This document shows positions 331-49,029 of a DNA stretch of 64,000 bases, one piece after another; the stretch's first letter is position 1, and every line of letters begins with the position of its first letter. The stretch is taken from NCBI GenBank assembly GCA_000004985.1, contig GG738857.1; one strand, 5' to 3'. The notes under the pieces were generated by a model. That model saw only the letters and a program-made list of their open reading frames with translations. It did not search any database and was not told the origin of the DNA. Made by a program: the position numbers and the translations under genes. Source of the stretch: Naegleria gruberi. Taxonomy: Eukaryota.

Positions 331-1083
331 AGAACTAAAAATAGAATTCTTCTAAACCCAACCTTCAAACCCTAGCCCAAAATTATAAACTTATTCAAAT
401 ATCATTAAATTTTATATCATTCGATCGGAAATGATGAGTAGAACAACGTAGTATATTTAGTTTTTCAATTTATAAAATATTAACTTTGTAAATAATATCA
501 GATTAAAATTTCATAAATGAAACCATAGGAAGAATGATAATTTCAAAATCCTTTAATGAGATTATATAGTTTATATCATCATAAACAGTATTCATCATTA
601 GGTTCACATGAAATTTCAAAAGTTCAAGTCTGTAGGTATAAAAGTATAGAGTGAAAAGGGAAGTTGTGAGGTACAATAGGTCAACAATAACTTTTGAGTT
701 TCTCATCAAAACATATTAAATCCTGATATGAAAATGTTCCATTTGATGATTATACATCGAATATCAAATTTATTTTAACTTTCATATTTAGAGATTTCTT
801 CCCTCAATCACACATGGTCTACTTTGATGAAAAGGATGAAATCTTGAAAAAGGACCACCTATTGAAACTTTACCAACATGATGTAGATGATATATAATGA
901 TATAGAATTCATTTTCTTATCATAAAAATCAGAAATGGTACCATGGGAAGGTAAATGTTGATATTTTATGGTTGACTTTAGAGAAAGACAAGTCAGACCA
1001 ACTCTATCAAATATATCACTTGCATCAACAATATATACATGAAAATGCTCCATTCGATGAGTAGAGATAGAATATTAAGTTTA
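331..1083. repeat. Subtelomeric telomere-associated element, copy A (cut off by the gap at 1084)
   Basis: The stretch beginning 'caaaccctagcccaa...atcattcgat...gtagaacaa...tttagtttttcaatttataaaatattaactttgt...' recurs at 8281-8886 with about 85-90% identity. Both copies sit directly after a telomere-repeat tract. I see no convincing coding ORF. Confidence 0.8.
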
Positions 1084-2666: not shown

Positions 2667-3083
2667 TCCAAACCCAAACCCAAACCCAAACCCAAACCCA
2701 AACCCAAACCCAAACCCAAACCCAAACCCAAACCCAAACCCAAACCCAAACCCAAACCCAAACCCAAACCCAAACCCAAACCCAAACCCAAACCCAAACC
2801 CAAACCCTAACCCAAACCCAAACCCAAACCCAAACCCAAACCCAAACCCAAACCCAAACCCAAACCCAAACCCAACCCAAACCCAAACCCAAACCCAAAC
2901 CCAAACCCAAACCCAAACCCAAACCCAAACCCAAACCCAAACCCAAACCCAAACCCAAACCCAAACCCAAACCCAAACCCAAACCCAAACCCAAACCCAA
3001 ACCCAAACCCAAACCCAAACCCAAACCCAAACCCAAACCCAAACCCAACCCAAACCCAACCCAACCCAACCTAAACCCAACCA
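2667..3083. repeat. Second telomere-like (AAACCC)n tract, degenerating at its 3' edge (CCCTAACCC and CCCAACCC variants)
   Basis: Perfect hexamers start immediately after the gap. Variant units CTAACCC, AACCCAACC and CCTAAACCCAACC appear at 2808-3083 before unique sequence begins. Confidence 0.9.
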
Positions 3084-6857: not shown

Positions 6858-7827
6858 CGGGTTTGAGCCACACCAAGCTCATTTGAGAAAGTGTAATTTA
6901 ATTTTACGACGGGTTTGAGCCACACCATGTTCATTTGAAACAATTTCAAGTCGTTTTTACATCGGGTTTGACGACAACCACTGTTTTAAAGATAACATTT
7001 GTGAAAAATCGACTGATCTCAATCATTATTAAGAATTTGAGTATACTCCAATGGAATGTTACCATCTACATACAGTTTAGAACATTTTCCATCCCCTTGT
7101 AAAAATTCCTTAATAATTTTGAACTATTCAAAGTTCAGTAAGAATGCAAAAATTTTAATTTGTTGTATAGTATAATACAGTATCATCAAAAAGTTGGATA
7201 ACTCATTCTTTTGAAAAGAAGCAACGGGTTTGAGCCACTCCACGTTCATTTGAAACAATTTCAAAAAGTTTTTACATCGGGTTGGATGACAACCATTGTT
7301 TTAAAGATTACAGTTGTGAAAAATCGACTGATCTCAATCATTTCTGAGAATTTAAGTATACTGTAAAGGACTGGTACCATTTCTATCGAGTTTTGAACAT
7401 TTTCCATCTACTTGAAAAAATTCCTTACTAATTGTGAAGTAAGAAAAGTTCAGTAAGAATGTAAAAATTTTAATTTGTTGTATAGTATAATACAGTCTTG
7501 TCAAAAGGTTGGATACGTCACTCTTTCGAAAAGAAGCAACGGGTTTGAGCCACTCCACGTTCATTTGAAACAATTTCAAACAGTTTTTACATCGGGTTGG
7601 ATAACAACCATTGTTTTAAAGATTACAGTTGTGAAAAAATGGCAAATCTCAATCATTTTTGAGAATTTAACTATACTGTAAAAGACTGTCACCATTTCCA
7701 TCGAGTTTTGAACATTTTCCAATCACTTGTAAAAAATTCTTAATAATTGTGAACTACTCAAAGTTCACTAAGATAGAAATATTTCATAAACTTATAGTTC
7801 CTTATGTAAGGAATTGTCAAAAGGTCT
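6858..7827. repeat. 315-bp satellite array A, about 3 units, truncated by the gap at 7828
   Basis: The motif 'gggtttgagccac.cca.g.tcatttgaaacaatttcaa..gtttttacatcgggtt.ga..acaacca.tgttttaaagat.aca.ttgtgaaaaa' recurs at 6911, 7226 and 7541, an exact 315-bp period. A shorter partial unit sits at 6858. Confidence 0.85.
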
Positions 7828-7877: not shown

Positions 7878-8190
7878 ACCCAACCCAAACCCAAACCCAA
7901 ACCCAAACCCAAACCCAAACCCAAACCCAAACCCAAACCCAAACCCAAACCCAAACCCAAACCCAAACCCAAACCCAAACCCAAACCCAAACCCAAACCC
8001 AAACCCAAACCCAAACCCAAACCCAAACCCAAACCCAAACCCAAACCCAAACCCAAACCCAAACCCAAACCCAAACCCAAACCCAAACCCAAACCCAAAC
8101 CCAAACCCAAACCCAAACCAAAACCATACCCAAACCCAAACCCAAACCCAAACCCAAACCCAAACCAAAACCAAACCCAAACCCAACCAA
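7878..8190. repeat. Third telomere-like (AAACCC)n tract
   Basis: Perfect hexamers begin at the gap edge. Variants CCAAAACCATACCC and CCAAAACC appear near 8115-8170. Confidence 0.9.
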
Positions 8191-8280
8191 AAACCTAAAA
8201 ACCCAAACCTAAAAACCCAAACCTAAAAACCCAAACCTAAAAACCCAAACCTAAAAACCCAAACCTAAAAACCTAAAAAT
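8191..8280. repeat. 14-bp (CCTAAAAACCCAAA)n telomere-derived micro-array
   Basis: 'cctaaaaacccaaa' occurs 5 times in tandem, followed by 'cctaaaaacctaaaaat'. It lies at the junction between tract 3 and subtelomeric element copy B. Confidence 0.8.
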
Positions 8281-8936: not shown

Positions 8937-9860
8937 TTACGTAAGCACACCGGGTTTGAGCCACACCAAGCTCATTTAAGAAAGTTTAATTTAATTTTAC
9001 AACGGGTTTGAGCCAGTCCATGGAGTTGTTAGTAAAGAGTGGTTGGATGAAATCACTGTTTCAAAGATAACAGTTGTGAAAAATCGACTAATCTCAATCA
9101 TTATTAAGAATTTGAGTATAGTTCAATGGAATTATACCATCTATAGCCAGTTTTGAACATTTTCCATCGACTTGTAAAAATTCCTTAATAATTAGGATGA
9201 AGGAAAAGTTCACTAAGAAAAGACAATGTTAATTTGTTGAACAGTATTGTACAATCCCCACCTAAAGGTTGAATAAGTCACTCTTTTGAGAAGAAGCAAC
9301 GGGTTTGAGCAACTCCAAGCTCATTTGAAACATTTTCAAAAAGTTTTTACATCGGGTTGGATGACAACCACTGTTTTAAAGATTACAGTTGTGAAAAATA
9401 GACTGATCTCAATCATTATTGAGAATTTAAGTACACTTTAAAGGACTGCCACCATTTCCATCGATTTTGGAACATTTTCCATCTACTTGAAACAATTCCT
9501 TAATAATTGTGAAGTAAGAAAAGTTCAGTAAGAAAAAATAAATTTCAGTTTGTTGTATAGTTAATACATTCTCATTCAAAAGGTTGGATAAGTCTCTTTT
9601 TTGAAAAGAAGCAACGGGTTTGAGCCACTCCAAGCTCATTTGAAACAATTTCAAACAGTTTTTACATCGGGTTGGATAACAACCATTGTTTTAAAGATTA
9701 CAGTTGTGAAAAAATGGCAAATCTCAATCATTTCTTAGAATTTAACTATGCTGTAACGGAATGTTACCATCTACAGCAATTTTAGAACACTTTCCATCTA
9801 CTTGAAACAATTCCTTAATAATTATGATGCAAGCAAAGTTCACTAAGAAAAGAATATTTC
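8937..9860. repeat. 315-bp satellite array B, 3-4 units, same family as 6858-7827
   Basis: 'gggtttgagcc' anchors at 8952, 9004, 9301 and 9616. The 9301 to 9616 spacing is 315 bp and the unit sequence is about 90% identical to array A. Confidence 0.85.
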
Positions 9861-26208: not shown

Positions 26209-29200
26209 ATGTCTCTCCAAATCAAAGCCCTCACACGCTCACTGCATGTTCTGATGATGTTATGTTTGATAATGATGATCATTGTGATGGAGGGCAATTT
26301 TATTTCCTCCGAATTATTACTGAACAATGATAAATTTCGAATACGTGATGATCACGAAAATGTACTAAATTATATGAGGAGGAAAGCCTTGAGTAGTTGG
26401 GAAAATGATGATCAAATGATGATGGAAAATTCAAATCAAATATTGTTGAATGATTCCGATGCCAGTGGTGTTGTTATTAGTAATAACAGCAGCACTATTC
26501 CAAATATATTTTATTTAAATACTAATATTCCGACCATTAATAATGCATCATCTTTAAATTGTAATAATATTTCGAATCCTTGTACGAAAGGATCACAAAT
26601 TTTAAATTATTTCTATGAAAATTTAGTTTACAAGACGGATAGTATTGATGTTTATGTGATTGGCAATTTGACAGATTGTTTTGATGGGACTGACAGATCG
26701 AATTCCTCCACAAGTAATTTATTAACAATGCGGCTGATAGGTCAAGATCCTAATCAATATTCCTATATGAATTGCAACATGAGATTATTATTTACAAATG
26801 TCTATTTTCATTACTTTAACCTTTACAAATATGATGTGAAAAATTTGAATACAGTAGGATTTGTGAATTGTAACATTAATTCAGTGAATGGAGATGAAAA
26901 AATTGAAACTGGAAAGTTAGTAATACGAAACTCAATTTCTAGGAACTCTAATTTTGAGACTACTAGTGTAGTGGATATTGACAAATTTGTCATGATTGAA
27001 AGTGATTTGAAAGTTTTCTTTCATGATCTGTATTTTTGGAAATCAAGATTTCTGACAGTTAATACTCTTAATAATTCTTTATTTGTGGATAGTTCAATAG
27101 AGTTGAATAGATTGTCAATGGTAGCAGTTGAAAATAGCAGATTCGAGAGATCTCAATTAACTGCTGTTTACCTATCCGCTTTGGAAATCAATAATTGTAC
27201 AGTATACGAAACTGTGAGATGGCTACGATTGAAAGGAACTATTCTCTTATCTCTAGAGAACAGTGTCATTAGTGAGAGTCCATACGACTCATCGAGTAAG
27301 GGAATTATAGAATCAATATTATCGAGCTATATTCACATTAACCAGTGTAAATTTCTTTCCAATAACAATATAGCAGTTTATGTGGACGAAACTGGTTTCT
27401 TCCATACGAGAAAATCGTTATTTAGTAATAATTTGGGGGCTGTATATATTGGAGAAATAGTTAACTTGGGAGATGTATTAACTGGAGTCCATATTATATC
27501 ATCCACATTTTCAAGAAACTTTGGAGTAAATGGTGGTGCCATAACTCTTCCCAACACAACTAGTGAAATATTTCGTTGTGAATTTTATGCAAATATTGCT
27601 CAAGCAGGAGGTGCAATTTTTTCCACTTCTGGTGAATTGAACATACTCAACAGCATCTTTGAAGAAAATCATGCTTTTTATTCTCCTTCATGTCCCACTC
27701 CATTTTGTGGAAGAGGAGGAGCCATCTATGCTCAAAACCCAATTCTTTTAAATATTGACTCTAAAAACACTTTCCGTAGAAACTATGCAAGAGATGGAGG
27801 CGCAATTTATGTTGATATTTATGATGACAATGAATTCTGGAAATCATGGATTTTAGTACTGAACTGTTTAGAAAACTCTGCAACCTTTTATGGAGATTGT
27901 TTTTATTCGAAACAAGATATGAAAGAACATGATTTTCTAAAAATTTTAAAGAACTCTCCAAATGCATTAGGTTCTTCTAAATTAACAATTGTGGACGTCA
28001 AACCAAGCTCCCTTGAAGTATATCCAGGTCAGAAAGCATCCATAGCTTTGACTATTATGGATGGGTTCAATAATACTTTACAAAAGCTGCAAACACAACC
28101 AGTAATAGCGAGCTCAGATCCTGGAGTAGCATTTCAGACATTTTTTGAAAATACCACATTCACCATCTCTCTACAAGTTACTAATCACAATACCACCTCA
28201 GCTGTGGCTTCATTTTATGTTGGAGAAGCAAATGTTAACATTACTGTCAAAATCATACCATGCCCAGATGGCTATTCATTAGTTAATTATTCTGCATCAG
28301 AAACAAGCAAGAGATTGTGCCTCAAAAATCCTGATCCACCACTCCATATCATTTTACCAGCTATTTTTTCAAGTATAATATTGTTCATTGTTGGAATCTT
28401 GTTGGGAATTTTAATAATATATCTAGGTTGGAATATTAATGAAAAGTTGAAACGTCTCAAGAAAAAGGAGAAGGCTGAAAAGAACTTGGCTCAGCGTCTT
28501 GTTGATAAGCAAGTTATCTTTTCAGAAAACAATGAGTTGAATCCATCAACAGATCTAAAGACGTCACTATTGGGAAGCTATTATGCCAACAGTCAAGGAT
28601 CCTCTTCATCTGGAAAGAATAGAAAAATTAAGGAGAAAATTAGGATGCAAGCAGAGCAAAACTATTTAATTCCAATAGAAAATATTGATATTGTTCGAAA
28701 AATTGCTGAAGGAGCAAATGGCATCGTATACCTCGGGAAATGGCTTGGCACTGAAGTTGCTATGAAGAGCTTGAAATTGGAATATGTTACGGAAGAGGAG
28801 AATGAGGAATTTGAAAAGGAGGCAGCATTATTGAAATCCCTTAAACACCCAAATATTGTCACCAGTTTTGGCGTTTGTATGAGTGGAAATATTAAATACA
28901 TGATTGTGGAATACATGCCAAGAGGAAGCTTGGACAGGGCAATTTATCAATCTAGAACTGGAGCTCAAATACTCAAATTGAAACAAAAAGTGAATATCCT
29001 TCTTGGAGTTGCAAACGGTATGAACTATTTACACTCTCTTAAACCATATAGTATCATACATAGAGATTTGAAACCTGGAAACATTTTGCTTGATCATAAT
29101 TTATCAAGTAAGGTAACAGATTTTGGACTCTCCAAAATTATAGGAGGAAATTCTACCAACACAATGACTACAGCACTGGGAACTTTATTTTACATGAGGT

Positions 29201-29658
29201 GAGTTGTTTAATTTAACTTTGGTTATAAGAATAACAATAGTCCTGAGATTCTAGGTGCAGACAGTCCAAGTGAATTCTCAACCAAGCTCGATGTCTATAG
29301 TTTTGCAATCATCATGTACGAGCTGATGTTTGAAGAATCTCCTTATTTAAATCACAAATCGCAAAAGATTTACAGATTCATCACACCCAATACTAACACT
29401 GAAAATCCTTTCAATATTCCAACTAAAGTGGTAAAGGGATTGAGACCTACCATTCCATTTTCATCCCTAGAAGAGCAGTATATTTGGATAGAGGAATTTG
29501 TTCTTCCTAGAGAACCAGAGATGGATGTTCAAATTGTTTCGAACGTATTTTCATTATTTATCGATTTGATGATTGAATGTTGGAGTGGAAAAGCTCAAGA
29601 AAGGCCAGATTTTGGAGAAATTTCCGAAAGATTAGGTGAAATGTTGAGAACATTATAG
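26209..29658 (+). CDS. Receptor-like Ser/Thr protein kinase: signal peptide, PMP/β-helix-repeat ectodomain, TM helix and kinase domain (2 exons)
   Basis: Exon 1 is 26209..29198 and exon 2 is 29241..29658. The 42-bp intron, 29199-29240, runs GTGAGT...AG and splits the kinase 'SPE' (APE) motif. Splicing restores '...GTLFYMSPEILGADSPSEFSTKLDVYSF'. The ectodomain has repeated 'GGAI(Y/F)' motifs (PMP-type right-handed β-helix repeats). The TM helix is 'ILPAIFSSIILFIVGILLGILIIYLGW'. The kinase motifs are GxGxxG-like 'IAEGANGIVY', 'VAMKSLK', 'HRDLKPGNILLD' and 'DFGLS'. Confidence 0.8.
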
Positions 29659-31479: not shown

Positions 31480-32637
31480 TTAATACTGATCTAGACAATA
31501 CTCTTTCAATTCTTTCAGTTGTTCATAAATTTCCTTTGCTCCTTCAATTCCAATAGGATTTCCATGAATTCGAAGATGGGTTAATGCTTTCATTGTTGAA
31601 ATGGCTTTTGCTCCTTCGTATCCAATATTATTTGAATAAAGAGAAAGATCTGTTAACTTTTCAAGAGTTATTAGAAACTTGGCTCCTGCATCACCAATAT
31701 TATTTTCACAAAGTTTAAGAATTCTTAATTGTTTCAATTTTTCAGAAATAAACTTGACTCCATGTTCATCAATTCTAGTCGTTTGAAGGGAAAGATTTGT
31801 CAGAGAAATTATTCCACTTATGAATTTGACTCCTTCATTACCTAAATCATTTTGATTCATGTTCAATTCAGTTAATTTTGGTAATTTGCTAATAAATTGA
31901 GCTCCTACATAACTAATACTATTGAATGAAAGGTTTAGAATAGCGAGATTAGGTAAATCACTCACAAACTTGGCTCCTACATCACCAATCGCATTGGTAC
32001 TGATATTTAGTTCGGTCAATTGAGTCATTTTTCTTAATAACATAGCACCCCTGAAACCAATGACATTATTAAAGACACTTAAAGCAGTCAATTTATCCAA
32101 TTTTCTGATATATTGAACTCCTTCCACTCCGAGTTGATTCGTTCCAATGTCAAGTTTAGTCAATTGTTTCATTTCACTTATATATTTAGCTCCTTGTTTT
32201 CCCATTTTATTATTAGCAATATTCAGACTGGTCAACTGATTCAATTCGCTAATAATTTTAGTTCCTTCTAGTCCAATTTGATTGATCTCCAGCTCTGTTA
32301 ATTGTTTCAGTTGACTAATTGCTTTAGCTCCTTCAATTCCAATTCTATTCCAAGATATTACAAGTCTAGTCAATTGTTGCAGTTGATCAATAAATGTAAC
32401 CAATGTAGATGCACCTTGGCCTTTTCCAATAGAACATCCAGTAACATCAAGATCAGTCAACTGTCTCATATTACAAATTGATTTAATGTCCTCTTCATCC
32501 ATTCCAATGTATGCAATGGAAAGAGTTTTCAATTTTTTCATATTCATTAGAATACTGCACCATGGTTTAATTTTCATATTGTGAAACTCTACTTGTTCGA
32601 AACAGTTTAGAAATTGACTTTGGATTCGGTTGACCAT
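31480..32637 (-). CDS. Leucine-rich-repeat protein, RNI-like 24-residue repeats (385 aa)
   Basis: About 11 tandem repeats of the form 'LTxLxIxxNxIGxxGAKxISxLKQ', for example 'LTSLNIANNKMGKQGAKYISEMKQ'. Confidence 0.7.
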   Translation of the reverse strand: MVNRIQSQFLNCFEQVEFHNMKIKPWCSILMNMKKLKTLSIAYIGMDEEDIKSICNMRQLTDLDVTGCSIGKGQGASTLVTFIDQLQQLTRLVISWNRIGIEGAKAISQLKQLTELEINQIGLEGTKIISELNQLTSLNIANNKMGKQGAKYISEMKQLTKLDIGTNQLGVEGVQYIRKLDKLTALSVFNNVIGFRGAMLLRKMTQLTELNISTNAIGDVGAKFVSDLPNLAILNLSFNSISYVGAQFISKLPKLTELNMNQNDLGNEGVKFISGIISLTNLSLQTTRIDEHGVKFISEKLKQLRILKLCENNIGDAGAKFLITLEKLTDLSLYSNNIGYEGAKAISTMKALTHLRIHGNPIGIEGAKEIYEQLKELKEYCLDQY

Positions 32638-33003: not shown

Positions 33004-34422
33004 ATGTCATCACATCAACTGCCACACATCATCTCACTGTTCTCGATTATAATCCTCATCATATCTTCAATCCACTGCGAACAATTCGTCTTGGGTGGCT
33101 CATTCACCATGAAATCCAGAACATCAGACTCATCTGTCACCAATCACTTTATTAAAAATCTTGCACTGTACAATACAAAAAACAATGAACTGTCAGCATT
33201 TTATAATATCCCACCTGATGGCCCCATTAACGTAATTTATTATGAACCTCGTTGTGATATGATGTTTATCGGAGGAAAATTCACAACCATTGATGGAGTG
33301 AAAAGTGGACCCATTGCTGTGAAATTATTGGCGAGTAGTGGAGGAAACACAACTCAAAATCAGTGGCAATCGTTGGGTGTATTTGATAGAGATATATGTA
33401 TGGGGGAATGGTCGGATGGAGCTGAGATTATGGATATTGAATTGTACTTTTCAAATTTTGTAAAAAGTTGTCAACCAAGTATTGTAATGGTTGGTAAATT
33501 TACAAAGGCAGCTGGTATTAGAAATTTGAATAATATTGTCATGTTGGATACGAAGAGTTTGAAATGGGAAGTGTATGCTGGAGGAAATAATTTGAATGGA
33601 TCTTCGTTTAATGGAATTAGGGCAAATTCATTGAGAGCTGCTCTGTATCATGATGATTCGTATTTGTACGTTGGAGGTGATTTTGATGGATATTTCAAAA
33701 GATATAAGGATCAGAAATGGGAAACTCTTCTTCAGGGACAATTGGATGGTCCAGTAACTACCATTTCAATTCAGAATAATCATATTTATGAGGATATCAT
33801 TGTTGTGGGAGGTCAATTCACAGTTCCTAAGCAGTACATGTTTCTATTCAAGCCATCGAAGAGTGTTAATTATGTGAGACATTTTAAAAAACCAACCAAA
33901 TTGATTGCACCATCAGTTGAATTCCTAACTGCCAATCAGACAAGTAGGAGAGGTGTGAAACAACTTGTGGTGAGTGGAGATCAATTGTTTGCAGGTGGTG
34001 CTTTTTCACATGAATCTGCAACCAATGGAATTTACAATAATTATCTGAGTTTAACTATTGAGGGATATGTAGCAGCCTCTTCTGAAACTTTGAACACTGT
34101 CTTTGAGAATAGTACAGTGTCGTCAATGGGCAAGTGTAAACCTCCATATAGATCTTGTAAGAGAGGATCTGTGGCTATCATCAAGAGGGATTTTATTTAT
34201 TATCCTGAAGAGAAGGGATATTATTATGATCCAGATCTGACATTATGCATTCATAGATCAGTGAATGATATTGACCAATTTAAACTTGCTATTGAAGGTG
34301 AGGAAGATACTGTGAATGATGTCATGTTCTTACCTTATGCTGCATCGAATTGGATTCAATCATCCTTACTGCTAACAGTTTTTTGTTTAATGAATGCATT
34401 GACATTTATTTATACTATATAA
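33004..34422 (+). CDS. Secreted, probably GPI-anchored Kelch-like β-propeller protein (472 aa)
   Basis: N-terminal signal peptide 'MSSHQLPHIISLFSIIILIISSIHC'. Recurrent 'GGxF' blade motifs: 'FIGGKFTTIDG', 'YVGGDFDGYF', 'VVGGQFTV', 'FAGGAFSH'. The C-terminus is a short hydrophobic tail ending at the stop, a GPI-signal-like arrangement. Confidence 0.55.
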   Translation: MSSHQLPHIISLFSIIILIISSIHCEQFVLGGSFTMKSRTSDSSVTNHFIKNLALYNTKNNELSAFYNIPPDGPINVIYYEPRCDMMFIGGKFTTIDGVKSGPIAVKLLASSGGNTTQNQWQSLGVFDRDICMGEWSDGAEIMDIELYFSNFVKSCQPSIVMVGKFTKAAGIRNLNNIVMLDTKSLKWEVYAGGNNLNGSSFNGIRANSLRAALYHDDSYLYVGGDFDGYFKRYKDQKWETLLQGQLDGPVTTISIQNNHIYEDIIVVGGQFTVPKQYMFLFKPSKSVNYVRHFKKPTKLIAPSVEFLTANQTSRRGVKQLVVSGDQLFAGGAFSHESATNGIYNNYLSLTIEGYVAASSETLNTVFENSTVSSMGKCKPPYRSCKRGSVAIIKRDFIYYPEEKGYYYDPDLTLCIHRSVNDIDQFKLAIEGEEDTVNDVMFLPYAASNWIQSSLLLTVFCLMNALTFIYTI

Positions 34423-37400
34423 ACAACATTGGCTTCTTCCAATAATTGTTGTTGAAGAGTGTGAGCCTTATTGAATACTGTATATTCAGAGGTAAAGACA
34501 AATCTAGAGAAGGTATCACCAAGATTGATGAGAATTTGTCGATTCAAGTTTTCAAATGTTTCCTTCACAACCTTTTCTTCAATTTCTATAACTGGAACAG
34601 GAGCATTCTTTGTGGCAACCTTGATATCTTGATCAACAGCTTCAATATCCACAGAGAATAATTCATAAGATTCATTCTTTTTGATAATGCTCTTGTAGAG
34701 GAAGAGGAATGCATTTCTACATTTGGATGGAATATTGACTTCTGTTGGTGCATTCGTCTTGATATAATTGTTATAAATATACTTGGAGAACTTTGGAAGC
34801 CTTTCCAAGTCATTACTATCCAAGAATGATTTGTTTGTTTTGATATCAGTAAAAAGATAAATATTCTCCAATGAGAACTCCTTTTCACAGAAAACTTCAA
34901 AGAGTCCATAACCTTCCTCATTATCCAAAACGACGCTCATATCCTTGTTGATAATTTCATCATTGGATGATTGTCTATTTTCTGGCTCGCTAGCTCTTTC
35001 CGTGTTTCTGACCTTTCCTTTGATCTTGTAGTTTGCCAATACCAACAGAGCATAACCACCAAATGTTAACATGTAGGTGAACACGTACAAAACTTCAAAG
35101 ATGAATGAAACCATATCTGTAACGAGGGCTTTTTGGAACATTTCTTCAGATTGGAATCTGAATGATAAACTACTAAGACCAAGTACTTGATTGAAGAAGA
35201 GGAAAATAAAGCACAAAATGTAGAGCATCATTTCCATTCTGAAATAAAGAGGACCGTCCAATGAAATAAACCATGTATAGAGTTTCTTGAATGGATTTGT
35301 GTAATTTTTCTTAAAGTTAATGGTATTAACATCAAACTCAGATGTTGGCTCCTTACGTTTGCTTGATGCTCTTGCTACTCTTTCCTTTTCTTGTTTATGA
35401 GATCCTACAAAGTCAAATATGGTAACCAGAATAATCATTACACTAAATACAAATACTGTGGTTGTGTAGGAAATAGAAACAATGTAGGTGTAAGCTGCTG
35501 AGCTAATGGCTCCAGTTCTAACTAGGATGACCCATAATGTCCAATAGAGCAAATTGATGCCAGCAAAAACGCAAACAATGGTTACAAATAAAGCAGTAGA
35601 GGTGGTGTAACGAAGCATTTTGAATATTCTTTCGCTCTTCTTTTCGTCTCCTCTTGTCTTGGCAATTAATTGATACAAATATTTCATAAATTGGAATCTG
35701 AATACTTGTAATACATATGAAAGAATAGCCGTCAAATTGAGTGTGTTGACAAGAATAGCAACAATATTAGCAATCACATTAGCAGCTGTATCACCAGCTT
35801 CCCACATTTGAGAATTACCAGAGTAGAGTTGAGATACTAGAACACTTCTTTGGATGATATAAACCAAAACACTTTCAATGATCAAAGCAATCATACCCAA
35901 GTATGGAGTTCCCAAACGAGAGGAAATTGGTTGCTCCTTTCTAAAGATAATTAATAATGTTAGGATGATAGTAGACATTACAAAGTAAAAGATACCGAAT
36001 GCAATTTGAGCACTATACAATCCAGTTACTACCTGCTTAACAATTGGTGTCATCTCTATTGTTTTTTGTTCCAAGAATGTGGAGAACATTGTGGTGTGAG
36101 TACAGGCACAATCAATCATTTGAGTAGCAGGATTATAGCCCACCAATGTACATCCGTCTGTGCTCCAAGCTCCACTACGTTCGTCATAATATCTACATGC
36201 AAAGGTTGATGTATTGGAAGAATAATTGGAAACAGTAGACAAATCCAAGTTCAATTTGAAGGAGAGAATGATTGGAGTTGTCAAGTTAGCCAATGGTAAA
36301 ACGCTTCCCTCTTGTAAGAACTTGAAGTCATTAGCAATAGATGTGGAAGGAGTACTTTCAGTAAAGTTATTGGAGAATGGAAGATTTTGATAGGAAATTA
36401 AAGATGTACCAGCACTCTTTGAGAAACCATCATATTTGGCCAAGATACTGGATATGTCCATTCCAATAGAACTGTCTCCTGATGAGAGAGTTTGATTGCC
36501 TGATGTTGGTCCACTCAATTTGAAGCTAGAAATTGTAATATTGATGAGAGGAGTACTGATTGTTACGGCAGGAAGTTCAGAGGATGATGAGTCCAATACT
36601 GTTGGAACTTGAGAGAGTAAGACAAGTGCGGCCATCTTACTGGTAACCTCTGTCGTTTTATCAGCACCAACACCAGATTGCAGTAAGTTGCCTGAAATTT
36701 CAATTGCTGATTTAACATCATCTTGTGAAATTTTGGATCTAACGTATCCGTACTGCTCAATTTCCTTCTTGTATAAATCTGTAAGAGAATCAGCGAAACT
36801 ACTCATCTTGGTTGTTACTTGGTCAACTACCTTGTCATTAACCGAGTCAGAGGAAGAAGTTAAGGCTTGGAAACTTGACAAAGCAGTAGCAGGATTAGTT
36901 GGATCTATCTTAATGTTTTGGACAATTTGTGAAACCAAATCAGCGTTACCACCACTTCCAGAGGAAGCAACCAAATACGATTGATCGTATGAGGCCACTG
37001 TTACAGCCACTCCTGTTAATTCACCAATTCTAGATGATAATTGAGAAGATGTTCCATTAAATGCAGTTACATTTACAGAAAGAGTCTCAAGTAAATCACT
37101 ATTTCCAAGAGAATCTTTTACATAAACAAGTAATCCAAGAGATCCCACTGTTACTTTCTTGTCTGTACTAATATACGGCAAGTAGGTAGAAATTGTCAGA
37201 TTTGCAGAATACTCAGTCAATCTAATTTGTTTCAAAGAGGTTGGATCAGTAAACCCGATAGCATATTGCAAAGGTTGTAATTGCTCAGCTGCAGCCCACT
37301 GATTAAAGGTAATTGTGAAATAATCAGTGAGTGCATATCCTGATGTTCTATCCAAAGTTACCAAATCACCTTCTGGGGCAGAAGCAGCAGAAATAATTGG

Positions 37401-39891
37401 GATAGTTACAGAACCAGTCATATTCTTGTTAGCAGAATTGAAAATTGCTAAAGAAATAACAACATAAGAACTGCCTGAAATATAGTTGGTTGTACTCAAT
37501 GTAATTGCTGGGGTAAACAATAAGGAATTACCTTGACGTGTATAACCAGTAATAAGACCAGTTGATTTGAAAATATTAGTGAGAGTACTCTTGACCATCA
37601 TTGATACACTCCAAGAGAAAGTCAAGGAAGAAGAACAATTTCCTTCACATCCCAAGAATGATTGAACAATTGATTGATTCAATGCCACTTTAGAAACAAC
37701 AGCCTCAATAGCTTTTCCAGCAGCAAGTTGTTTTCCTACATAAACTGAAGGCAAACCAAAAATGTCCAATGAAGGAACATTTACATCAACAACCGGTACT
37801 ACCAAGACAGTCATATTAAATTTGACAGTGTTGGATACACGACTAGCAAAACCTTTTGGATTAGTATAGAAAACATTAGCCGAGAAAATGTACAAAGCAG
37901 GAGCCTTGAGTTCTGATGGATTAACCATAAGTATTCTATCATTAGTTTGGTTAAATGGAGTTGAAGTGTTTGTATTACCTTGGCAATTTTCACAAATCCA
38001 TTGGTAAACCAGATTGGAGCTGGCGAGAGAGGAAAATTCGTCTGATATTATTTCCAATGAAACAGAAGTAACATTTTGATAGTAAACTCCTGATGATTTT
38101 TTCAAAGAAATAACTAATGGATTGAGGTTGACGCTACAATCGGTAGAAGAGTATCCAGATTGACAGCTACATTCGTTATAAGAAATACAAGTACCCTTAG
38201 ATGAACAAACGTTGCTGGAATTAGATGAAACTGAGTTGCAAGTAGTGAGCTCGCATTTAGTTCCGAAATAGTTTGCATTACATGAACAGATATCATTACC
38301 AGTACATGTTCCCTTTCCATTACAAACAGAGGTGTTGTTAGAATTGATACCAAAACATTTTGTTACTGAACAAGATGGTCCAAACCAATTAGCTGTACAA
38401 TTACAGGTATTGTAGTCCAAACATTTACCATTTCCAGAACAGACTGTGGAGTTCAAATAATTGATTCCATAACAATTGAATTGTGAACATGTGGATCCGT
38501 AATAATTCTTTGAACAATTACAGTTGTTTGGAGAAACACATGAGCCCAATCCGCTACAAACATTGGATGAATTGAATTGAATATCATGGCAAGAGTAACT
38601 TTCACAGTTTGATCCATTGAAACCTGATTTACAGCTACAAATATTTGGCGCAATACAGGAACCATTGCTTGAACAAGCCAAAGAGGAATTAAAGTTGTAT
38701 CCAAAACATGAGAAGCTTTCACAATTAGATCCAGAATATCTTGAGGTACAGTTACATTTGTTTGGTTGAGTGCACGAGCCTCTTCCAGAACAAACATTCT
38801 TATCAGAATAGACGACTGAGTTACAATAATAAGTACCACAGTTTGATCCAGAGTATCCTGCAATGCAAGAACAATTATTTGGTGAAATACAACTTCCTTT
38901 TCCAGAACAAGCTAATGGATCAGAATAATCAAAACCAGAACATTGGTAAGTTTGACAATTGGTGCCATTATATCCAGAGAAACAAGTACAGTTGTTTGGA
39001 GAAGAACATACTCCAAAACCAGAACAAACTGAGGAACTATTCTTTGAAATATTAGAACAATTGTAATTTTCGCATTGTTGTCCATAGTATCCTGAATTAC
39101 ATGAGCAAATATCAGCTCCATTGCATTTACCATTACCAGAACAGACCTTAGAATCATTTGATAACAATCCATAGCATTGGAATTTTTCACAATTATTTCC
39201 ACCATATCCTGCAATGCAAGAACAATTATTTGGTGAAATACAACTTCCTTTTCCAGAACAAACTAATGGATCAGAATAATCAAAACCAGAACATTGATAA
39301 GTTTGACAATTGGTGCCATTGTATCCAGAGAAACAAGTGCAGTTGTTTGGAGAAGAACATACTCCAAAACCAGAACAAACTGAGGAACTATTCTTTGAAA
39401 TATTAGAACAATTGAAATTTTCGCATTGTTGTCCATAGTATCCTGAATTACATGAGCAAATCTCAGCACCATTGCATTTACCATTACCAGAACAAACCTT
39501 AGAATCGTTTGATAACAAACCAAAACATTGGAATTTGTCACAATCATCACCACCATATCCTACAATGCAAGAACAATTATTTGGTGAAACACAGCTTCCT
39601 TTTTCAGAACAAACTCCTGAATTGTTATAGAGTTTTCCATTACAATCATAATTTTCACACATGTTACCATAATAACCTGATTTACATGTGCAAACATTTG
39701 ATGAGGAGCAAACACCATTTCCAGAACATACACCAGTATTATTGTTGAACGTTCCATAACAGTAATAAGTCTGACAACTTTCTCCAGAGTATCCATTTTG
39801 ACAGGAACAATTATTTGGTTTAACACAAGCTCCCTTTCCTGAACATACAGATGAATCATTGTAATAAACGTTGTAACAATTATAATCAGAA
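34410..39891 (-). CDS. Adhesion-type GPCR with C-terminal RGS domain: EGF-like repeat ectodomain, GAIN/GPS, 7TM and RGS. Probably the 3' part of one gene together with 39560..41041.
   Basis: The 1750-aa ORF (34410..39662) stays open in the same frame up to the gap at 39892, and EGF-like repeats continue there ('...CSGKGACVKPNNCSCQNGYSGESCQTYYCYG...'). From N- to C-terminus: more than 20 six-cysteine EGF-like units; a GPS site 'CRYYDERSGAWSTDGCTLVGYNPATQMIDCACTHTTMFSTF' (C-x-C-x-H-T/T-x-F); seven hydrophobic helices; and an RGS box with 'EFSLENIYLF' and 'APTEVNIPSKCRNAFLF'. No signal peptide exists if the protein starts at Met 39662. Confidence 0.8.
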
Positions 39892-40042
39892 NNNNNNNNN
39901 NNNNNNNNNNNNNNNNNNNNNNNNNNNNNNNNNNNNNNNNNNNNNNNNNNNNNNNNNNNNNNNNNNNNNNNNNNNNNNNNNNNNNNNNNNNNNNNNNNNN
40001 NNNNNNNNNNNNNNNNNNNNNNNNNNNNNNNNNNNNNNNNNN
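39892..40042. other. Assembly gap (N run) inside the lectin-EGF-GPCR gene
   Basis: 151 N. Confidence 1.
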
Positions 40043-41041
40043 TGTTATTACAATAATAAGTTCACAGTTAGTTCCGTAGTATCCATTGACACAAGTGCAT
40101 ATATTAGGATTGTAACAAGTTCCATGACCTGAGCAAACATATGAAGTGTTAGTATTTGTAATTCCATTACAAGTCCAATATTCACACAAGGATCCAACAT
40201 AATTGGTGTTGCAAGTACAAGTATTTGGACCACTACAAGTACCTCTACCACTACAAACATTATAACTACCAGCAAGAGTACCGCCACATACGAATGTTTG
40301 ACAATTAGCATTGCCATATCCACTGTTACAATTACAACTATTTGGTGAAGTACAGGTACCATGACCTGAACATACTGCGTCACTGGTTGCATTTACATTA
40401 AAACAAACTGGTGTCTGACAAGTAGAGCCAACATATCCATAATTAGGAGCACTTCCATCAGAATAATCAGTACTCCAACAAACATATCCATCAGAACCAT
40501 ACAAGACTAAATCTCCATTATTTTGAAGAACTAAAGCAAAAGGAGCAGTACCTCCAGTACAAGCTTCTGACAATGTCTTTACAACGTTACCATTGCCATA
40601 AATTGCCAAAGTACCGTTAGTTTCTAATTTCAATTGATATGGAGCTGTTCCCTTCTTATAGGTTCCACTCATCCAACTGGCATAATTGCTGCCAGCACTA
40701 TTATCAAACAATACCAAGTTTCCTGAGGTTTGCATCTGTAAATAGTATTGTCCAAAATAGAGCGAGGAAAAGGTTGCTCCTGCAGTCATGATATTATTCT
40801 GATTTGAAATTAAAGCAGTGGATGTTGTAATATCCAAGCAAGTACATTCATCATCGCCTGTACATAAACCATGTCCAGAACATACACCACTAGTTCCAAT
40901 CTGTGTTGATTCTACTCCTGTACATGTATGTTGAGCATGGCTGGAATGGCTCATACAAATTCCTACAATGATTAGGATAATAAGGTATATACAACTAGTG
41001 CTAGAAAGACGTAACCTAGGGGTTGCTTTCCTATTTGTCAT
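40043..41041 (-). CDS. Signal peptide + bulb-type (B-lectin) mannose-binding lectin domain + EGF-like repeats. Probable 5' part of the adhesion-GPCR/RGS gene.
   Basis: Start Met at 41041 with signal peptide 'MTNRKATPRLRLSSTSCIYLIILIIVGICMSHSSHA'. The B-lectin domain reads 'QNNIMTAGATFSSLYFGQYYLQMQTSGNLVLFDNSAGSNYASWMS...LETNGTLAIYGNGN...LQNNGDLVLYGSDGYVCWST'. EGF-like repeats of the same type as the downstream gene follow and run into the gap. The ORF-track continuation past the gap (39560..39891 in this frame) is out of frame and not real. Confidence 0.7.
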
Positions 41042-41742
41042 TTTGTTGTATAAAGCGTTTCAAAATTTTGGATGACAAGTGAAAGCAAGTGAGTTGTAAC
41101 TTTTTTTCTATTTAGTTTTTACCCAACTTCATATTCTTTGCTTCAGTAAAATGCGCATTTCTGATTCCAGCTGAATTGTCACTAGTCGTTTACAGAGATG
41201 TTAAGAGTGACTTGGGTGAGTGTGGGTGAAGGACCGTAAAGAAATTTCCCGCCAAACAATTCTACAACTGAGATTCAATGTTAATGTCATCACTCATTAA
41301 AAAAGGCATTGTGATTTGGTTATTTTTGATGGAATGAAGGAACTTTAATGTTGGATGACTGAAGAGAGGTGAAATGTCTGTTAAATAAATGTTGTATGAC
41401 TCATTAATAGATATTTTGTTCCGAAATTTGTACTATTGTAGAAAACATATTAGTTTGATGGTTGATGATAATGTTTAACAACAAGGTGTGTATATCAGAT
41501 GCTCATTATGGAAGGTGATAGAGCCAAATAATTTTCTTCCTTGTAAATTATTATTTAATAAAACATATGCTGCTAATTAGCGAAGAGAGGAATTTCCGAG
41601 AGATGCCATCCTGATGGTTTCATCCTTTCACATTTTAATCATTTTTATTTTAAAAGTAATTTTATTTAACATTCCTTCCAAGCGGGAAACTACAGCCACG
41701 TTTCGGATCAAAACGTTTCTCTATTTACAAAAATTCAAAAAA

Positions 41743-42693
41743 ATGTTGGTAACCAACCAAAGCCAAACACTGAAAGAAGAGCTAAACACCATTACTACGC
41801 TCTTTGAGCAACTTCATGCCAAAGCAAATGAAAAAATAGCTCTCTTGGAGAAGAAAGAGAAAGAGTGGAAGATCAGACAAGATCAAATCGAAGAAAATAT
41901 CAAAAAGTGTCCTGATAAAGTAATTTTGAACATTGGAGGAAAAACCTTTGCATCAACCAAAGACACTCTTCTCAGCAAGAAGGATTCCTTTTTCTATGCC
42001 ATGTTGTCGAGTGGTAATTGGTTACCAGATCAAGATGGAACTTATTTCATTGATCGAGATCCAAAATATTTCCGATACTTGTTGAATTACTTGAGAACTG
42101 GAGAACGTCCAGATTTATCTGAATTATCAAAGGTTAAATTGAAGGAATTGCAAAAGGAGGCAAACTTCTATTGTCTTGATGATATGTTCGGAAATGACTC
42201 ATCACTTGAAATATTGGCTATGCCCTCTGTCAAGTCCACAATAATATCACAAAGGAAAGTTTCTATTGTTGGTGATGATAGCAGTGGTACATACATCAAA
42301 ACCTATAACCTCACAAAGTTGGAGAGTGGAACCTTTAGATGGAAGATCAATATTCATTCATTTACTTCATGGCTTGGTATTGGAGTTGTTATGACTGACA
42401 GGGTGGAAAAGAAGATATTCAATGACTTTGTTACTCCATACAAAGAACACGGATGCTACATGGCAAGTGCAAATTGTTACCTGTGGCAAGCAGCTAACGG
42501 TTATTCTGCTAACAGTTTCCCATTAAAAGCTGGAGACGAGATGATGATGGAATTGTCTTGTGAAAGTCAAGTTCTCACCATCACCAATACTTCCACCAAT
42601 GCTCAACTTACAATTCCTAATGTTAGCCTGCCAGCTTTTCCTTGTATTGTTACGAATGGAAAATTCAGCATTGATTTAGAGTGGGTAGCTTAA
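41743..42693 (+). CDS. BTB/POZ (K+-channel-tetramerisation, KCTD-type) domain protein
   Basis: 'VILNIGGKTFASTKDTLLSKKDSFFYAMLSSGNWLPDQDGTYFIDRDPKYFRYLLNYLRTGE' is a canonical T1/BTB domain. I take the start as Met 41743, because the upstream extension of the ORF from 41614 reads like non-coding sequence. Confidence 0.7.
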   Translation: MLVTNQSQTLKEELNTITTLFEQLHAKANEKIALLEKKEKEWKIRQDQIEENIKKCPDKVILNIGGKTFASTKDTLLSKKDSFFYAMLSSGNWLPDQDGTYFIDRDPKYFRYLLNYLRTGERPDLSELSKVKLKELQKEANFYCLDDMFGNDSSLEILAMPSVKSTIISQRKVSIVGDDSSGTYIKTYNLTKLESGTFRWKINIHSFTSWLGIGVVMTDRVEKKIFNDFVTPYKEHGCYMASANCYLWQAANGYSANSFPLKAGDEMMMELSCESQVLTITNTSTNAQLTIPNVSLPAFPCIVTNGKFSIDLEWVA

Positions 42694-45906: not shown

Positions 45907-47112
45907 TTATTGGAAATGATCAATGTAGAGATGACATGTCCTTGCAATAATATCCATACCAACCCGAGCACTCTTTTCCTTAAGGAATTGTGGATCTTTG
46001 AGTTTACCACTTTGCAAATAATATTTCCAATGACTTCCAATACCTAGCACGCAATAACACATCTGGAGAACTATGCAATGTTTGTAGGATTCAAGGAAAC
46101 TCTCCCAACTCAACTTGTTACCACTCAATGATTCAAAGTATTCACGGAGGAGCGACTCTTCCACTGTCCTCCTCTTTTGAATGGATATGCTTTGGGCAGT
46201 AAAATGTGAAAGATCATAGGAGCAAGGACCTTTGCTTAAGGATTGAAAATCAATAAATTTTACAGAATTTCCTTTCTTAATAATATTTTCCAATCTAAAA
46301 TCACCGTGAACGGCAAATGCTTGATCATTTTGGAGGTACGAGAGCGAGTTCTTAATGTTGGCCACCAAATTTGGCAACTCTATTCTTGTGTGAAAATGTT
46401 GCAAAATGGTATCACTGTAAGTAGACCAATCTAGTTCCTTAATAACGTCCAAAAATATTGTCCAGTCCCCCTCAACCTTCGCACAAACAGTTTCCACCAG
46501 ATATTTATCAAGATTTTCCTCCTTTTCTAGTAGCGAGTTAAATTCAAAGAAGAGAACTCCATTTATGAAGGAGTAAAACAAGCTCCTAACATTCAAATCA
46601 GAAAGATTGCTCCCAATTTCGAGTTGGACTCTCTGCCAATGTCTCAATATATTAGATGCATCCTCAATAGAGCAATCACTCAATTGATCCATTTCTCCAA
46701 TTCCACAATCTTCCATTACAATGTAAAATAATTGCTCTTCTTCATTCAAATATCCACTGGCAAATATCTTTGGTAAGCCATCAACTTTTTTCTTCATCAT
46801 CAACCATCTACAAAATTCCACTTCATTTCTGTATTGATTCTTCAATAGAGGTCTCATCTTTCCATTCGTACTAGCCAACTTGACAATCACACTCTCCTCT
46901 CCAACTTGTATTCTCAGCACCACACCACAAAATCCCTTCATTGTATTTACAATATTTCCATTCCTCAAGACCAGTTCCCAGGAAACATCTTCCCTCTTTT
47001 CATTCAATTGATCTTCAACATTCGATACAGATCGCAATGAATCACTCTTCTTGATCAATACCGTGGCATCATCAAGTAAGCCAGCATACAACCGCTCAAT
47101 ACAACTTTCCAT
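45907..47112 (-). CDS. Protein-kinase-like-fold phosphotransferase (APH/choline-kinase-like), 401 aa
   Basis: Catalytic loop 'AVHGDFRLENII' (HGD..N) and metal-binding 'IDFQS' in the expected order, preceded by a lysine-containing β-strand region. No protein-kinase activation-segment motifs. Confidence 0.55.
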   Translation of the reverse strand: MESCIERLYAGLLDDATVLIKKSDSLRSVSNVEDQLNEKREDVSWELVLRNGNIVNTMKGFCGVVLRIQVGEESVIVKLASTNGKMRPLLKNQYRNEVEFCRWLMMKKKVDGLPKIFASGYLNEEEQLFYIVMEDCGIGEMDQLSDCSIEDASNILRHWQRVQLEIGSNLSDLNVRSLFYSFINGVLFFEFNSLLEKEENLDKYLVETVCAKVEGDWTIFLDVIKELDWSTYSDTILQHFHTRIELPNLVANIKNSLSYLQNDQAFAVHGDFRLENIIKKGNSVKFIDFQSLSKGPCSYDLSHFTAQSISIQKRRTVEESLLREYFESLSGNKLSWESFLESYKHCIVLQMCYCVLGIGSHWKYYLQSGKLKDPQFLKEKSARVGMDIIARTCHLYIDHFQ

Positions 47113-47394: not shown

Positions 47395-49029
47395 TTACTT
47401 GTTGAGTTTGAATTTCTTTGAAGGTTTGGCATCTTGAATGGCACTTGGTCTGTATTCTCCCGAGATACCAATTCCAACATATCCATTTTGTACACTGAGA
47501 TTGGTATTGTCGATGATTAATCCAGGAAGATAGTTGGCCAAATTGAAGAGTGGAATACCATCAGCAAGTTGAATGTTAAGTTGACGAACAACTCCTCTTG
47601 CTACAACAACATTGACAATGAATGCAAAATTCTTAATATCTATTGGTCCAATCCATGATTGTTTCAAGGTGAGAAGAACTGATGGATTATCAATTTCGGC
47701 AGTCATGTTGATGGTAGTGGCATTATTCTTAAGGGAAATCTTATCCAAAGAGAATTGAGCAGCAACTGAGACAGAGAAGGCATTCACAGTTGAAGAACCA
47801 TTTAAAACTTGGAACAACAATTCACCATTGAAATTGGCATTCATTCCAACAGTTGTAATGTTAAAGTCTGGAACTGGTGCATTACTTGGGTTGCTTGACA
47901 AGACCAATTGGACAAGTTGATTTGGATACTTGTTGTAAAGTTCTGGGAGGTAAATCTTCAAACTTGTAGTATTGAGTTGGATCATTTCAGTTGGAGGGAC
48001 CATTTCAGGAGTAACGACAAATGAAATTTGGTTAGATTGGTGGAGACTGAATAATAAACTCTTTACAACAAAGTCAGTAACGTAAATTTGCAATAAATCA
48101 TTACTAGTTGGGCTGGTTGGCAAATCAACTGGTTCAAATGGTAATTTTTCACCGAGAGACTTGTCGAAGAATCTAACTTGAGAGAAGGCACCAACAGTCA
48201 AATAATCAACAACCTTAAAGATATCAAATCCAAAGTCGATCATTAAACTCATAGTTGATGACAAGTTGATTGGCATGATGAATGGTTGTTGAGCAATGTA
48301 ATCATTGACTTCTTGGATCTTCAAATGAATAGTATCAGAAACAGCATTAGCAATAAGTTTGTTAATAGTTGATGTAAAGAGAGAATCGAGCAAATTAATA
48401 ATCCATCCTTGAATACCACCTTCACTAATATGAATCTTCATGTCATACAATTCCAATCCAACTTGTGACATAAATTGTGGTTTTTCGTCAGGAGTAATTG
48501 ACAATTGAAGTCTCAAACCTCCATAAACACTTTCAGTATTAACATCAGCAATACCAGATCCAGTCAAATATGGGAATGACAATTGCTTGTATTGGAATTT
48601 GGTAGTCAAAACCAAACTTGCTTTGGACATTTTAACATAGAAATAATTACCAGTAGGATCCAATGAAGTTTGAATATCTTGTCCCAAGTCAATTTGTTGA
48701 AGTTTCGTTTCACTAACAACAACTTGAACATCACCAATCACTGAAACATGTTGTGTTACATTAATTTGTGGAATGACAATATGATCCTTTACATATTGTG
48801 CAAATTCGTCCTTATTTTTCTTTATAATTTGATTCAAATAGGAAATGTTTAAAAAGCCTGCAGAGGAAGGCTTTAAAGGAGTTGCTTTTATCTTATTTGT
48901 TATTGTTTTAATATTTCCTCGTAAATTTGATCCGCTAATTAATGATGCACACAAGCCGATGATCATCATACCCACTATCATCATCAGCGAGAGAATAAAA
49001 CTTCTCCCTCTATGATTGAATTTAAACAT
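47395..49029 (-). CDS. Secreted or type-II membrane protein of unknown function (544 aa)
   Basis: N-terminal hydrophobic anchor 'SFILSLMMIVGMMIIGLCASLI'. Long non-repetitive ORF. Confidence 0.55.
   Translation of the reverse strand: MFKFNHRGRSFILSLMMIVGMMIIGLCASLISGSNLRGNIKTITNKIKATPLKPSSAGFLNISYLNQIIKKNKDEFAQYVKDHIVIPQINVTQHVSVIGDVQVVVSETKLQQIDLGQDIQTSLDPTGNYFYVKMSKASLVLTTKFQYKQLSFPYLTGSGIADVNTESVYGGLRLQLSITPDEKPQFMSQVGLELYDMKIHISEGGIQGWIINLLDSLFTSTINKLIANAVSDTIHLKIQEVNDYIAQQPFIMPINLSSTMSLMIDFGFDIFKVVDYLTVGAFSQVRFFDKSLGEKLPFEPVDLPTSPTSNDLLQIYVTDFVVKSLLFSLHQSNQISFVVTPEMVPPTEMIQLNTTSLKIYLPELYNKYPNQLVQLVLSSNPSNAPVPDFNITTVGMNANFNGELLFQVLNGSSTVNAFSVSVAAQFSLDKISLKNNATTINMTAEIDNPSVLLTLKQSWIGPIDIKNFAFIVNVVVARGVVRQLNIQLADGIPLFNLANYLPGLIIDNTNLSVQNGYVGIGISGEYRPSAIQDAKPSKKFKLNK

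Follow-up and report, generated by a model that had tools for sequence, protein, structure and literature searches.

How did a stretch of 351 bp come to stand twice, nearly unchanged, in the coding region of a receptor ectodomain, and is its copy number still changing? The question is raised by a locus of Naegleria gruberi in the 64,000-nt stretch of DNA analyzed here (hereafter, the window). We conclude that the gene NAEGRDRAFT_57455 very probably underwent an in-frame tandem duplication of a cassette of three EGF domains (351 bp, 117 aa) by unequal exchange in its ectodomain. The duplication itself was confirmed in the sequence and is far beyond chance.

The host gene and its protein

The duplication is coded on the minus strand, within a gene whose product (EFC46803.1) is annotated as 'predicted protein'. 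The main piece of the gene is a single ORF of the minus strand, running from 39890 to 34410 and open for 5.4 kb. The encoded protein has a signal-peptide-like start, a bulb-lectin-like region, the EGF array, a GPS motif, seven helices, and a C-terminal RGS domain, in this order (Table 1). In Pfam scans, the EGF array matched EGF_2 in 13 stretches (E = 2.1e-56) and also matched EGF_TEN (E = 2.2e-45) and EGF_Teneurin, and the N-terminal piece matched EGF_2 with E = 3.3e-12. The bulb-lectin-like region reached 23.8 bits for B_lectin, which is under the Pfam cut-off of 32.4. The GPS motif reads ...CACTHTTMFSTF (36084-36110), directly ahead of the first membrane helix. The number of helices is that of a hydropathy scan, and the Pfam scans gave no match to 7tm_2 in NAEGRDRAFT_57455.

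Table 1. Positions of the gene, its domains, the EGF units, the two copies, and the assembly gap in the window.
Feature	Position	Strand	Description
NAEGRDRAFT_57455, whole gene (EFC46803.1 / D2V8G1)	34410..41041	minus	100% identity to the public model P0001
N-terminal piece	40043..41041	minus	signal-peptide-like start, bulb-lectin-like region, three complete EGF units and the start of a fourth
Assembly gap	39892..40042		151 N, inside the EGF array, 277 bp from the repeat
EGF array E1-E15	38124..39878	minus	15 EGF-like units, uninterrupted, each exactly 117 bp / 39 aa with 6 Cys
E3, upstream recombination partner	39528..39644	minus	exact 27-bp tract TTTCACCAAATAATTGTTCTTGCATTG at 39563-39589
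E6, chimeric junction unit	39177..39293	minus	positions 0-82 E9-like, positions 89-116 E3-like
E9, downstream recombination partner	38826..38942	minus	27-bp tract at 38861-38887
Period-351 similarity, full extent	38854..39615	minus	Tandem Repeats Finder: 2.2 copies, 95% match, 0% indels
Copy A, truly duplicated	39207..39557	minus	last 30 bp of E3, E4, E5, and first 87 bp of E6, codon-aligned
Copy B, truly duplicated	38856..39206	minus	last 30 bp of E6, E7, E8, and first 87 bp of E9
GPS motif	36081..36200	minus	PF01825, 30.2 bits (cut-off 22.5), E = 6.4e-7, region scanned alone
Putative 7TM core	35037..35999	minus	seven hydrophobic segments, seven separate peaks in Kyte-Doolittle 19-residue windows
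RGS domain, C-terminal	34644..34934	minus	PF00615, 38.4 bits (cut-off 23.9), E = 1.8e-9

N. fowleri has 28 7TM RGS genes, and 7TM RGS proteins in which EGF repeats occur together with lectin domains and GPS motifs have been reported from it (Bosch et al., J Biol Chem 2022; PMC9283941); intragenic duplications were not described for them (PMC9283941). Proteins of the 7TM-RGS type occur in many eukaryotes (PMC3971589). AtRGS1-type members and NAEGRDRAFT_57455 presumably work alike, in that the receptor would regulate the acceleration of GTP hydrolysis by G-alpha subunits that activate themselves (PMC9283941, PMC3971589). NAEGRDRAFT_57455 is a member of this published, adhesion-GPCR-like class of Naegleria, since RGS domain, 7TM core, GPS motif, EGF array, and orthology (see below) all place it there.

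Chromosome position and assembly

A telomere-type array, (AAACCC)x55, occupies positions 1-331 of the window, and more AAACCC arrays were found at 2668-3080 and 7878-8269, together with two arrays of a 315-bp repeat. NAEGRDRAFT_57455 lies 34-41 kb from the telomere-repeat array. It is separated from the subtelomeric repeats by about ten genes of ordinary appearance, among them genes for a kinase and an LRR protein.

The window contains seven N gaps, one of which falls inside the EGF array. The contig flanking it on the N-terminal side shows an apparent 1-nt frameshift and breaks off where an EGF unit has just begun (C-N-N...); the contig on the C-terminal side opens with the last Cys of such a unit. 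At least one EGF unit must thus be hidden in the gap (roughly 96 + 117k bp), and the total of at least 19 EGF units is a lower bound. The public model P0001 crosses the gap by an artificial intron, in which ...CSGRG is joined to KGACVKPNN..., and the public gene model is thus wrong around 39892-40042.

A single contig contains the whole duplication, with unique sequence on both sides: upstream, E2 and the 5' portion of E3; downstream, the 3' portion of E9 and E10. Exact look-ups of a neighboring ORF, the public model, and the 1750-aa ORF found only the reference as N. gruberi sequence of the locus. Protein-database queries with the cassette region and the N-terminal piece gave no non-reference N. 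gruberi match, in searches that were word-indexed rather than exhaustive and left P0001 itself unlisted. Metagenome scans by protein and by exact 29-mer gave no second N. gruberi sequence. The cassette copy number is that of one draft assembly; a nanopore assembly of N. gruberi exists (PMC12695648).

The original prediction had placed the cassette in the ectodomain of a subtelomere-proximal receptor and had warned of the assembly. The placement agrees with the frame, the Pfam matches (EGF_2, GPS, RGS), and the seven hydrophobic helices; 'subtelomere-proximal' is a fair term given the telomere-type array at the window start; and the caution was reasonable in view of the gap with its hidden unit or units so close to the repeat. 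The term 'ligand-facing', also used there, describes a putative role of this part.

Extent and identity of the duplication

Unit pairs in E1-E15 showed a DNA identity of 54 ± 5% (maximum 68%) when the five top-scoring pairs, all among E3-E9, were left out. The duplicated pairs reached 93% (E4/E7), 97% (E5/E8), and 86% (E6/E9). When the sequence was compared with itself at a lag of 351, identity rose from ~55% to 88-100% over 39620 to 39205 and then went back down. A blastn search of one unit against the 64-kb window gave 94.6% identity over 351 bp to the adjoining copy and, where a third unit seems to start, 98.3% over another 60 bp. No further copy of the 351-bp unit was detected by blastn over the window; the distant matches (65-70%) were all EGF units of NAEGRDRAFT_57455 itself. 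The period equals 3 x 117 bp, and the copies stand head-to-tail with no spacer and 0 indels. Copies A and B differ at 16 of 351 positions (95.4% identity).

We conclude that the true duplication covers 2.0 x 351 bp, with no third copy. The extra ~60 bp of similarity at 39615-39558 reflects an older resemblance between E3 and E9, the substrate of the exchange, and it is this stretch that raised the Tandem Repeats Finder estimate to 2.2 copies. Tandem Repeats Finder and blastn thus bore out the near-identical 351-bp tandem duplication of the original prediction, and the 117-aa peptide quoted there is exactly E6-E7-E8. The DNA identity, given there as 97%, is actually about 95% (95% by Tandem Repeats Finder, 94.6% by blastn, 95.4% over the true copies). 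That each unit encodes the same three-EGF module holds overall, except that the N-terminal half of the upstream E3 differs (CNGKLYNNSG...). What had been taken for the start of a third unit is the older similarity of the recombined units E3 and E9.

The chimeric unit at the junction

In a three-way comparison of E3, E6, and E9, E6 proved to be chimeric (Fisher p = 6e-7). Its informative sites agree with E9 before position 83 (20 of 21) and with E3 after position 88 (13 of 15). The switch is located at unit positions 82-89, giving a crossover interval of about 39204-39211. E9 and E6 have one difference in the first 89 bp, and the 3' end of E9 is unique. E3 and E9 share an exact 27-bp match, which is the longest in-register match between non-duplicated units (the next is 17 bp). 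This tract stops just ahead of the crossover, so that the switch sits at its 3' edge. A switch at such a shared tract is the signature of unequal exchange. It should be mentioned that the three-EGF cassette brings seven N-x-S/T motifs, three of which overlap a cysteine.

Proposed origin

We infer an ancestral unit order X-Y-Z-W, in which X (now E3) and W (now E9) would have been paralogous 117-bp units, three apart, with a common 27-bp identical tract. Mispairing of X and W and exchange at the 3' edge of the tract, by unequal crossing-over or template switching, would yield X-Y-Z-[W5'/X3']-Y-Z-W, which corresponds to the observed E3-E4-E5-E6-E7-E8-E9. The exchange would have added three EGF domains to the ectodomain, and the reading frame and the six-cysteine pattern would have survived it because every unit is exactly 117 bp. 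Subsequently, gene conversion between the copies would have homogenized their 3' two-thirds. The sequence does not distinguish between unequal crossover, replication slippage, and template switching. The additional EGFs may alter ligand reach or binding.

An ectopic donor of the cassette was also considered and rejected. Within the 64-kb window, the unit is confined to NAEGRDRAFT_57455 (blastn), and elsewhere in N. gruberi the best other protein match to E2-E10 was 49% identical.

Selection and uneven divergence of the copies

Copies A and B gave dS 0.137, dN 0.026, and dN/dS 0.19 over 351 bp (Nei-Gojobori), with a significant excess of synonymous differences (binomial p = 0.0018). In a wider comparison over 411 bp, third codon positions held 13 of the 21 differences. 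These values indicate that purifying selection has acted on both copies ever since they were duplicated, which in turn argues that the longer protein is probably made and used. Positive selection on the copies was rejected, given an omega of 0.19.

The differences are distributed unevenly. The first 96 bp contain 11 of them (dS 0.42) and the remaining 255 bp contain five (dS 0.058). The Fisher test of this split gave p = 0.0005 for a boundary picked post hoc, and a change-point permutation, which corrects for that choice but uses only 16 differences, gave p = 0.007. The dN/dS ratios of the two parts were alike (0.16 and 0.17). One simple event alone does not predict uneven divergence, and an extra step is required. 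We infer that this step was most likely a later gene conversion between the copies, judging from the few sites available. At dS of 0.06-0.4, the duplication is not very recent.

The N. fowleri orthologue and the receptor family

The N. fowleri orthologue (FDP41_005437 / CAG4715528.1) is 63% identical over the C-terminal 1200 aa (E = 0) and has 30 EGF units. It harbors EGF duplications of its own, with periods of three and five units, and these are older (69-86% aa identity). No counterpart of the doubled cassette was found in this orthologue, whose best unit matches were 57-69% without collinearity. For the same reason, one-to-one orthology between E3-E9 and the N. fowleri EGF units was rejected, and the duplication can be dated no finer than 'after the gruberi/fowleri split'. 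Because a collinear cassette is missing from the orthologue, the duplication is specific to the N. gruberi lineage and postdates this split.

Four N. fowleri assemblies showed no EGF copy-number difference in the orthologue and were identical from residue 130 onward, except for variable position 661 in the array. Strain copy-number variation in N. fowleri was rejected as the source of the different protein lengths (2504, 2632, and 2720 aa), which differ only at the N-terminal gene-model start.

We surveyed 80 relatives, comprising 77 proteins with phmmer E of ~1e-30 or better from a library of 1.84 billion proteins and P0001-P0003. At least four recognizable EGF units were present in 21 of the 80. 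Unit pairs at least 75% identical occurred in 8 of these 21, and pairs at least 90% identical occurred in five: NAEGRDRAFT_57455, N. gruberi 73289, 71475, and 73134, and N. lovaniensis C9374_008645. In the latter four, such pairs stand at lags of 2-7 units. Across the surveyed relatives, the periods of EGF duplication ranged from one to seven units. Separately, P0004, an unrelated EGF protein of N. gruberi, was found to have a period-3 EGF duplication. From the 5 of 21 relatives with pairs at least 90% identical, together with the duplications in N. fowleri and P0004, cassette duplication is a recurrent growth mode of these EGF arrays.

These data bear on the words 'recent' and 'ongoing', with which the original prediction had described the expansion. 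For this locus both words are overstated: dS is 0.14 (0.42 and 0.06 in the two parts), dN/dS is 0.19, and the copy number of the N. fowleri orthologue is constant in four assemblies. 'Ongoing' can be kept at the family level only (5 of 21).

Discussion

Could the doubled cassette be a product of the assembly, with two alleles stacked, reads mis-joined, or copies collapsed, so that the locus truly has one cassette or some other number? The surroundings invite the suspicion: the 151-N gap is 277 bp off in the same array, the adjoining contig end carries an apparent 1-nt frameshift, seven N gaps lie across the window, the gap has already led to a distorted public gene model, and a second N. gruberi sequence of the locus was not found in the database and metagenome searches. 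The repeat, however, sits in a single contig between unique flanks, and stacking would need a false join in a tract of 27-34 bp that yields a clean in-frame chimera. Moreover, 16 of 351 sites differ between the copies (11.5% in the first 96 bp), which we take to be far above the allelic variation in the sequenced N. gruberi strain, and young duplications are also present in other family members, including one from an independent N. lovaniensis assembly. An artefact is thus quite improbable. Another possibility, which we take seriously although we lean against it, is that the duplication is old and that repeated gene conversion (concerted evolution) has kept the copies alike, so that 95% identity would record homogenization rather than age. 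The contrast in dS between 96 bp (0.42) and 255 bp (0.058), with a permutation p of 0.007, fits this, as do the similar dN/dS ratios (0.16 and 0.17), since age and not constraint would then differ between the parts. Nevertheless, a single conversion-like tract is visible, the estimates are coarse with 16 differences in all, and the event is still specific to the N. gruberi lineage since N. fowleri has no recognizable doubled cassette. This alternative alters the dating of the duplication, not its nature, and overlaps with unequal exchange followed by conversion.

It may also be asked whether the cassette was selected for altered ligand specificity, in an adaptive, diversifying expansion of a fast-evolving subtelomeric repertoire. 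The purifying signature (dN/dS 0.19 with a significant synonymous excess) opposes this, as do the mere two copies, the constant copy number of the N. fowleri orthologue in four assemblies, and the roughly ten ordinary-looking genes that separate the receptor gene from the subtelomeric repeats. We regard such an expansion as very improbable, even though the gene is 34-41 kb from the telomere-repeat array, the EGF arrays of the family have been remodeled repeatedly, and the family has many members (28 7TM RGS genes in N. fowleri; PMC9283941). A broader reading is that recombination drives a fast turnover of the family's EGF arrays, which would serve as a recognition repertoire, and that multi-EGF cassettes are so frequently duplicated, converted, and lost as to be polymorphic between N. 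gruberi strains. It would include that proximity to the chromosome end favors turnover and that NAEGRDRAFT_57455 is an allele of variable copy number, whose copies may outnumber those in the assembly. We consider this reading unlikely; if it were true, a variable cassette count would tune what the amoeba senses or adheres to.

The preferred explanation, duplication of the cassette by unequal exchange, makes this an ordinary, textbook domain duplication in a receptor class that is already published. The finding will not surprise a specialist and raises no new question. Its value is that of a clean, datable case of ectodomain growth by repeat domains, in which one can still read off the parental units, the chimera at the junction, and the identity tract used for the exchange, and it shows that this large family of Naegleria 7TM-RGS receptors has had its EGF arrays remodeled repeatedly.

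Comparison with known systems

Yeast FLO/adhesin genes contain intragenic tandem repeats, and their length changes by recombination. NAEGRDRAFT_57455 resembles them only loosely, in having an in-frame, long-period repeat in an exposed part, near a chromosome end and probably generated by unequal recombination. Unlike them, it has only two copies, which are 5% diverged and under purifying selection, and with two diverged, constrained copies, high instability is not expected. Similarly, hypervariable (contingency-type) repeats have many near-identical copies, whereas here there are two with 95.4% identity.

At the level of single modules, the six-cysteine spacing of the EGF arrays of WIF-1, teneurin, and tenascin matches that of the NAEGRDRAFT_57455 units, and the best sequence match among solved structures was the WIF-1 EGF array (2ygq, E = 3.4e-8). 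This likeness is one of fold or module only, the surrounding proteins being unrelated. AtRGS1-type proteins of plants and protists share with NAEGRDRAFT_57455 the seven helices followed by a cytoplasmic RGS box; to our knowledge, AtRGS1 has no large ectodomain, EGF array, or GPS motif.

Metazoan adhesion GPCRs (CD97/EMR, CELSR) also have an EGF array N-terminal to a GPS and 7TM core, and in them as in NAEGRDRAFT_57455, how long the ectodomain is and what it is composed of depend on the number of EGF modules. The latter differs in that it has no Pfam 7tm_2 match and carries a C-terminal RGS (GAP) domain; we know of no adhesion GPCR with an RGS domain. In addition, Thr would precede the putative GPS cleavage site of NAEGRDRAFT_57455 (H-T↓T), compared with the usual Leu of adhesion GPCRs. 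The N. fowleri orthologue has the same domain order as NAEGRDRAFT_57455, that is, a lectin-like region, EGF array, GPS, seven helices, and RGS box. Its EGF units number 30 versus at least 19 in NAEGRDRAFT_57455, and both receptors contain internal multi-unit EGF duplications.

Gene model of the receptor and the assembly gap

The public model of the receptor gene NAEGRDRAFT_57455 (P0001, 2075 aa) was spliced over the 151-N assembly gap at 39892-40042, such that ...VCSGRG is joined to KGACVKPNN.... Through this splice, about 84 residues of genuine gap-flanking EGF sequence are missing from P0001, and an apparent 1-nt frameshift lies at the contig end (about 40043-40060). The true NAEGRDRAFT_57455 protein is longer than the public model. 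A word-indexed protein search queried with P0001's own EGF and N-terminal parts missed P0001 itself, so that negatives obtained there from repeat-rich queries are not exhaustive.

Three-EGF periodicity

Inside the array of 117-bp EGF units (E1-E15, 38124-39878), a faint, older period-3 similarity was found at the DNA level (E1/E9, 68%; E2/E7, 67%; E8/E12, 59%). Units F11, F14, and F17 of the N. fowleri orthologue were 69-71% identical at the amino acid level, and in NAEGRDRAFT_48621, an unrelated EGF protein of N. gruberi, units 3/6 and 4/7 were 77-80% identical. A three-EGF periodicity recurs in all three proteins.

Chromosomal context

The ORFs neighbouring the receptor gene are ordinary gene content, not a repeat-only subtelomere. 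The convergent 472-aa neighbour shares 13 bp (34410-34422) with the receptor 3' end. Its product has a signal-peptide-like start and a hydrophobic C-terminal tail, and gave a borderline match to the Rax2 beta-propeller (28.3 bits vs a cut-off of 28.8).

Features of the window around the receptor gene
Feature	Position	Strand	Remarks
AAACCC hexamer array	1-331		55 copies, 99% match
AAACCC hexamer array	2668-3080		70 copies, 97% match
AAACCC hexamer array	7878-8269		64 copies, 88% match
315-bp tandem repeat, two arrays	6909-7773 and 9041-9856		2.6-2.7 copies, 82-87% match
Protein kinase	26209-29202	+	Pfam; long N-terminal region ahead of kinase
LRR protein	31480-32637	-	Pfam
Convergent neighbour gene	33004-34422	+	472 aa; overlaps receptor 3' end
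GPS motif C-A-C-T-H-T-T-M-F	36084-36110		Receptor gene
BTB_2 (K-tetra) protein	41614-42693	+	Pfam
EcKL/APH-type kinase-like protein	45907-47112	-	Pfam
LBP/BPI/CETP C-terminal domain protein	47395-49029	-	Pfam

The window opens with the first telomere-type AAACCC array, whose C-rich strand runs 5' to 3' inward, the orientation expected of a chromosome end. N gaps border both internal AAACCC arrays, which could be either true interstitial arrays or scaffolding artefacts. The arrays of the 315-bp repeat lie in the stretch that separates the telomere-type arrays from the first ordinary genes; this repeat is a candidate for a subtelomeric family.

GPS motif of the receptor

In the usual GPS motif, Leu precedes the cleavage site, whereas the receptor GPS has Thr at this position (H-T/T, the slash marking the putative cleavage site).
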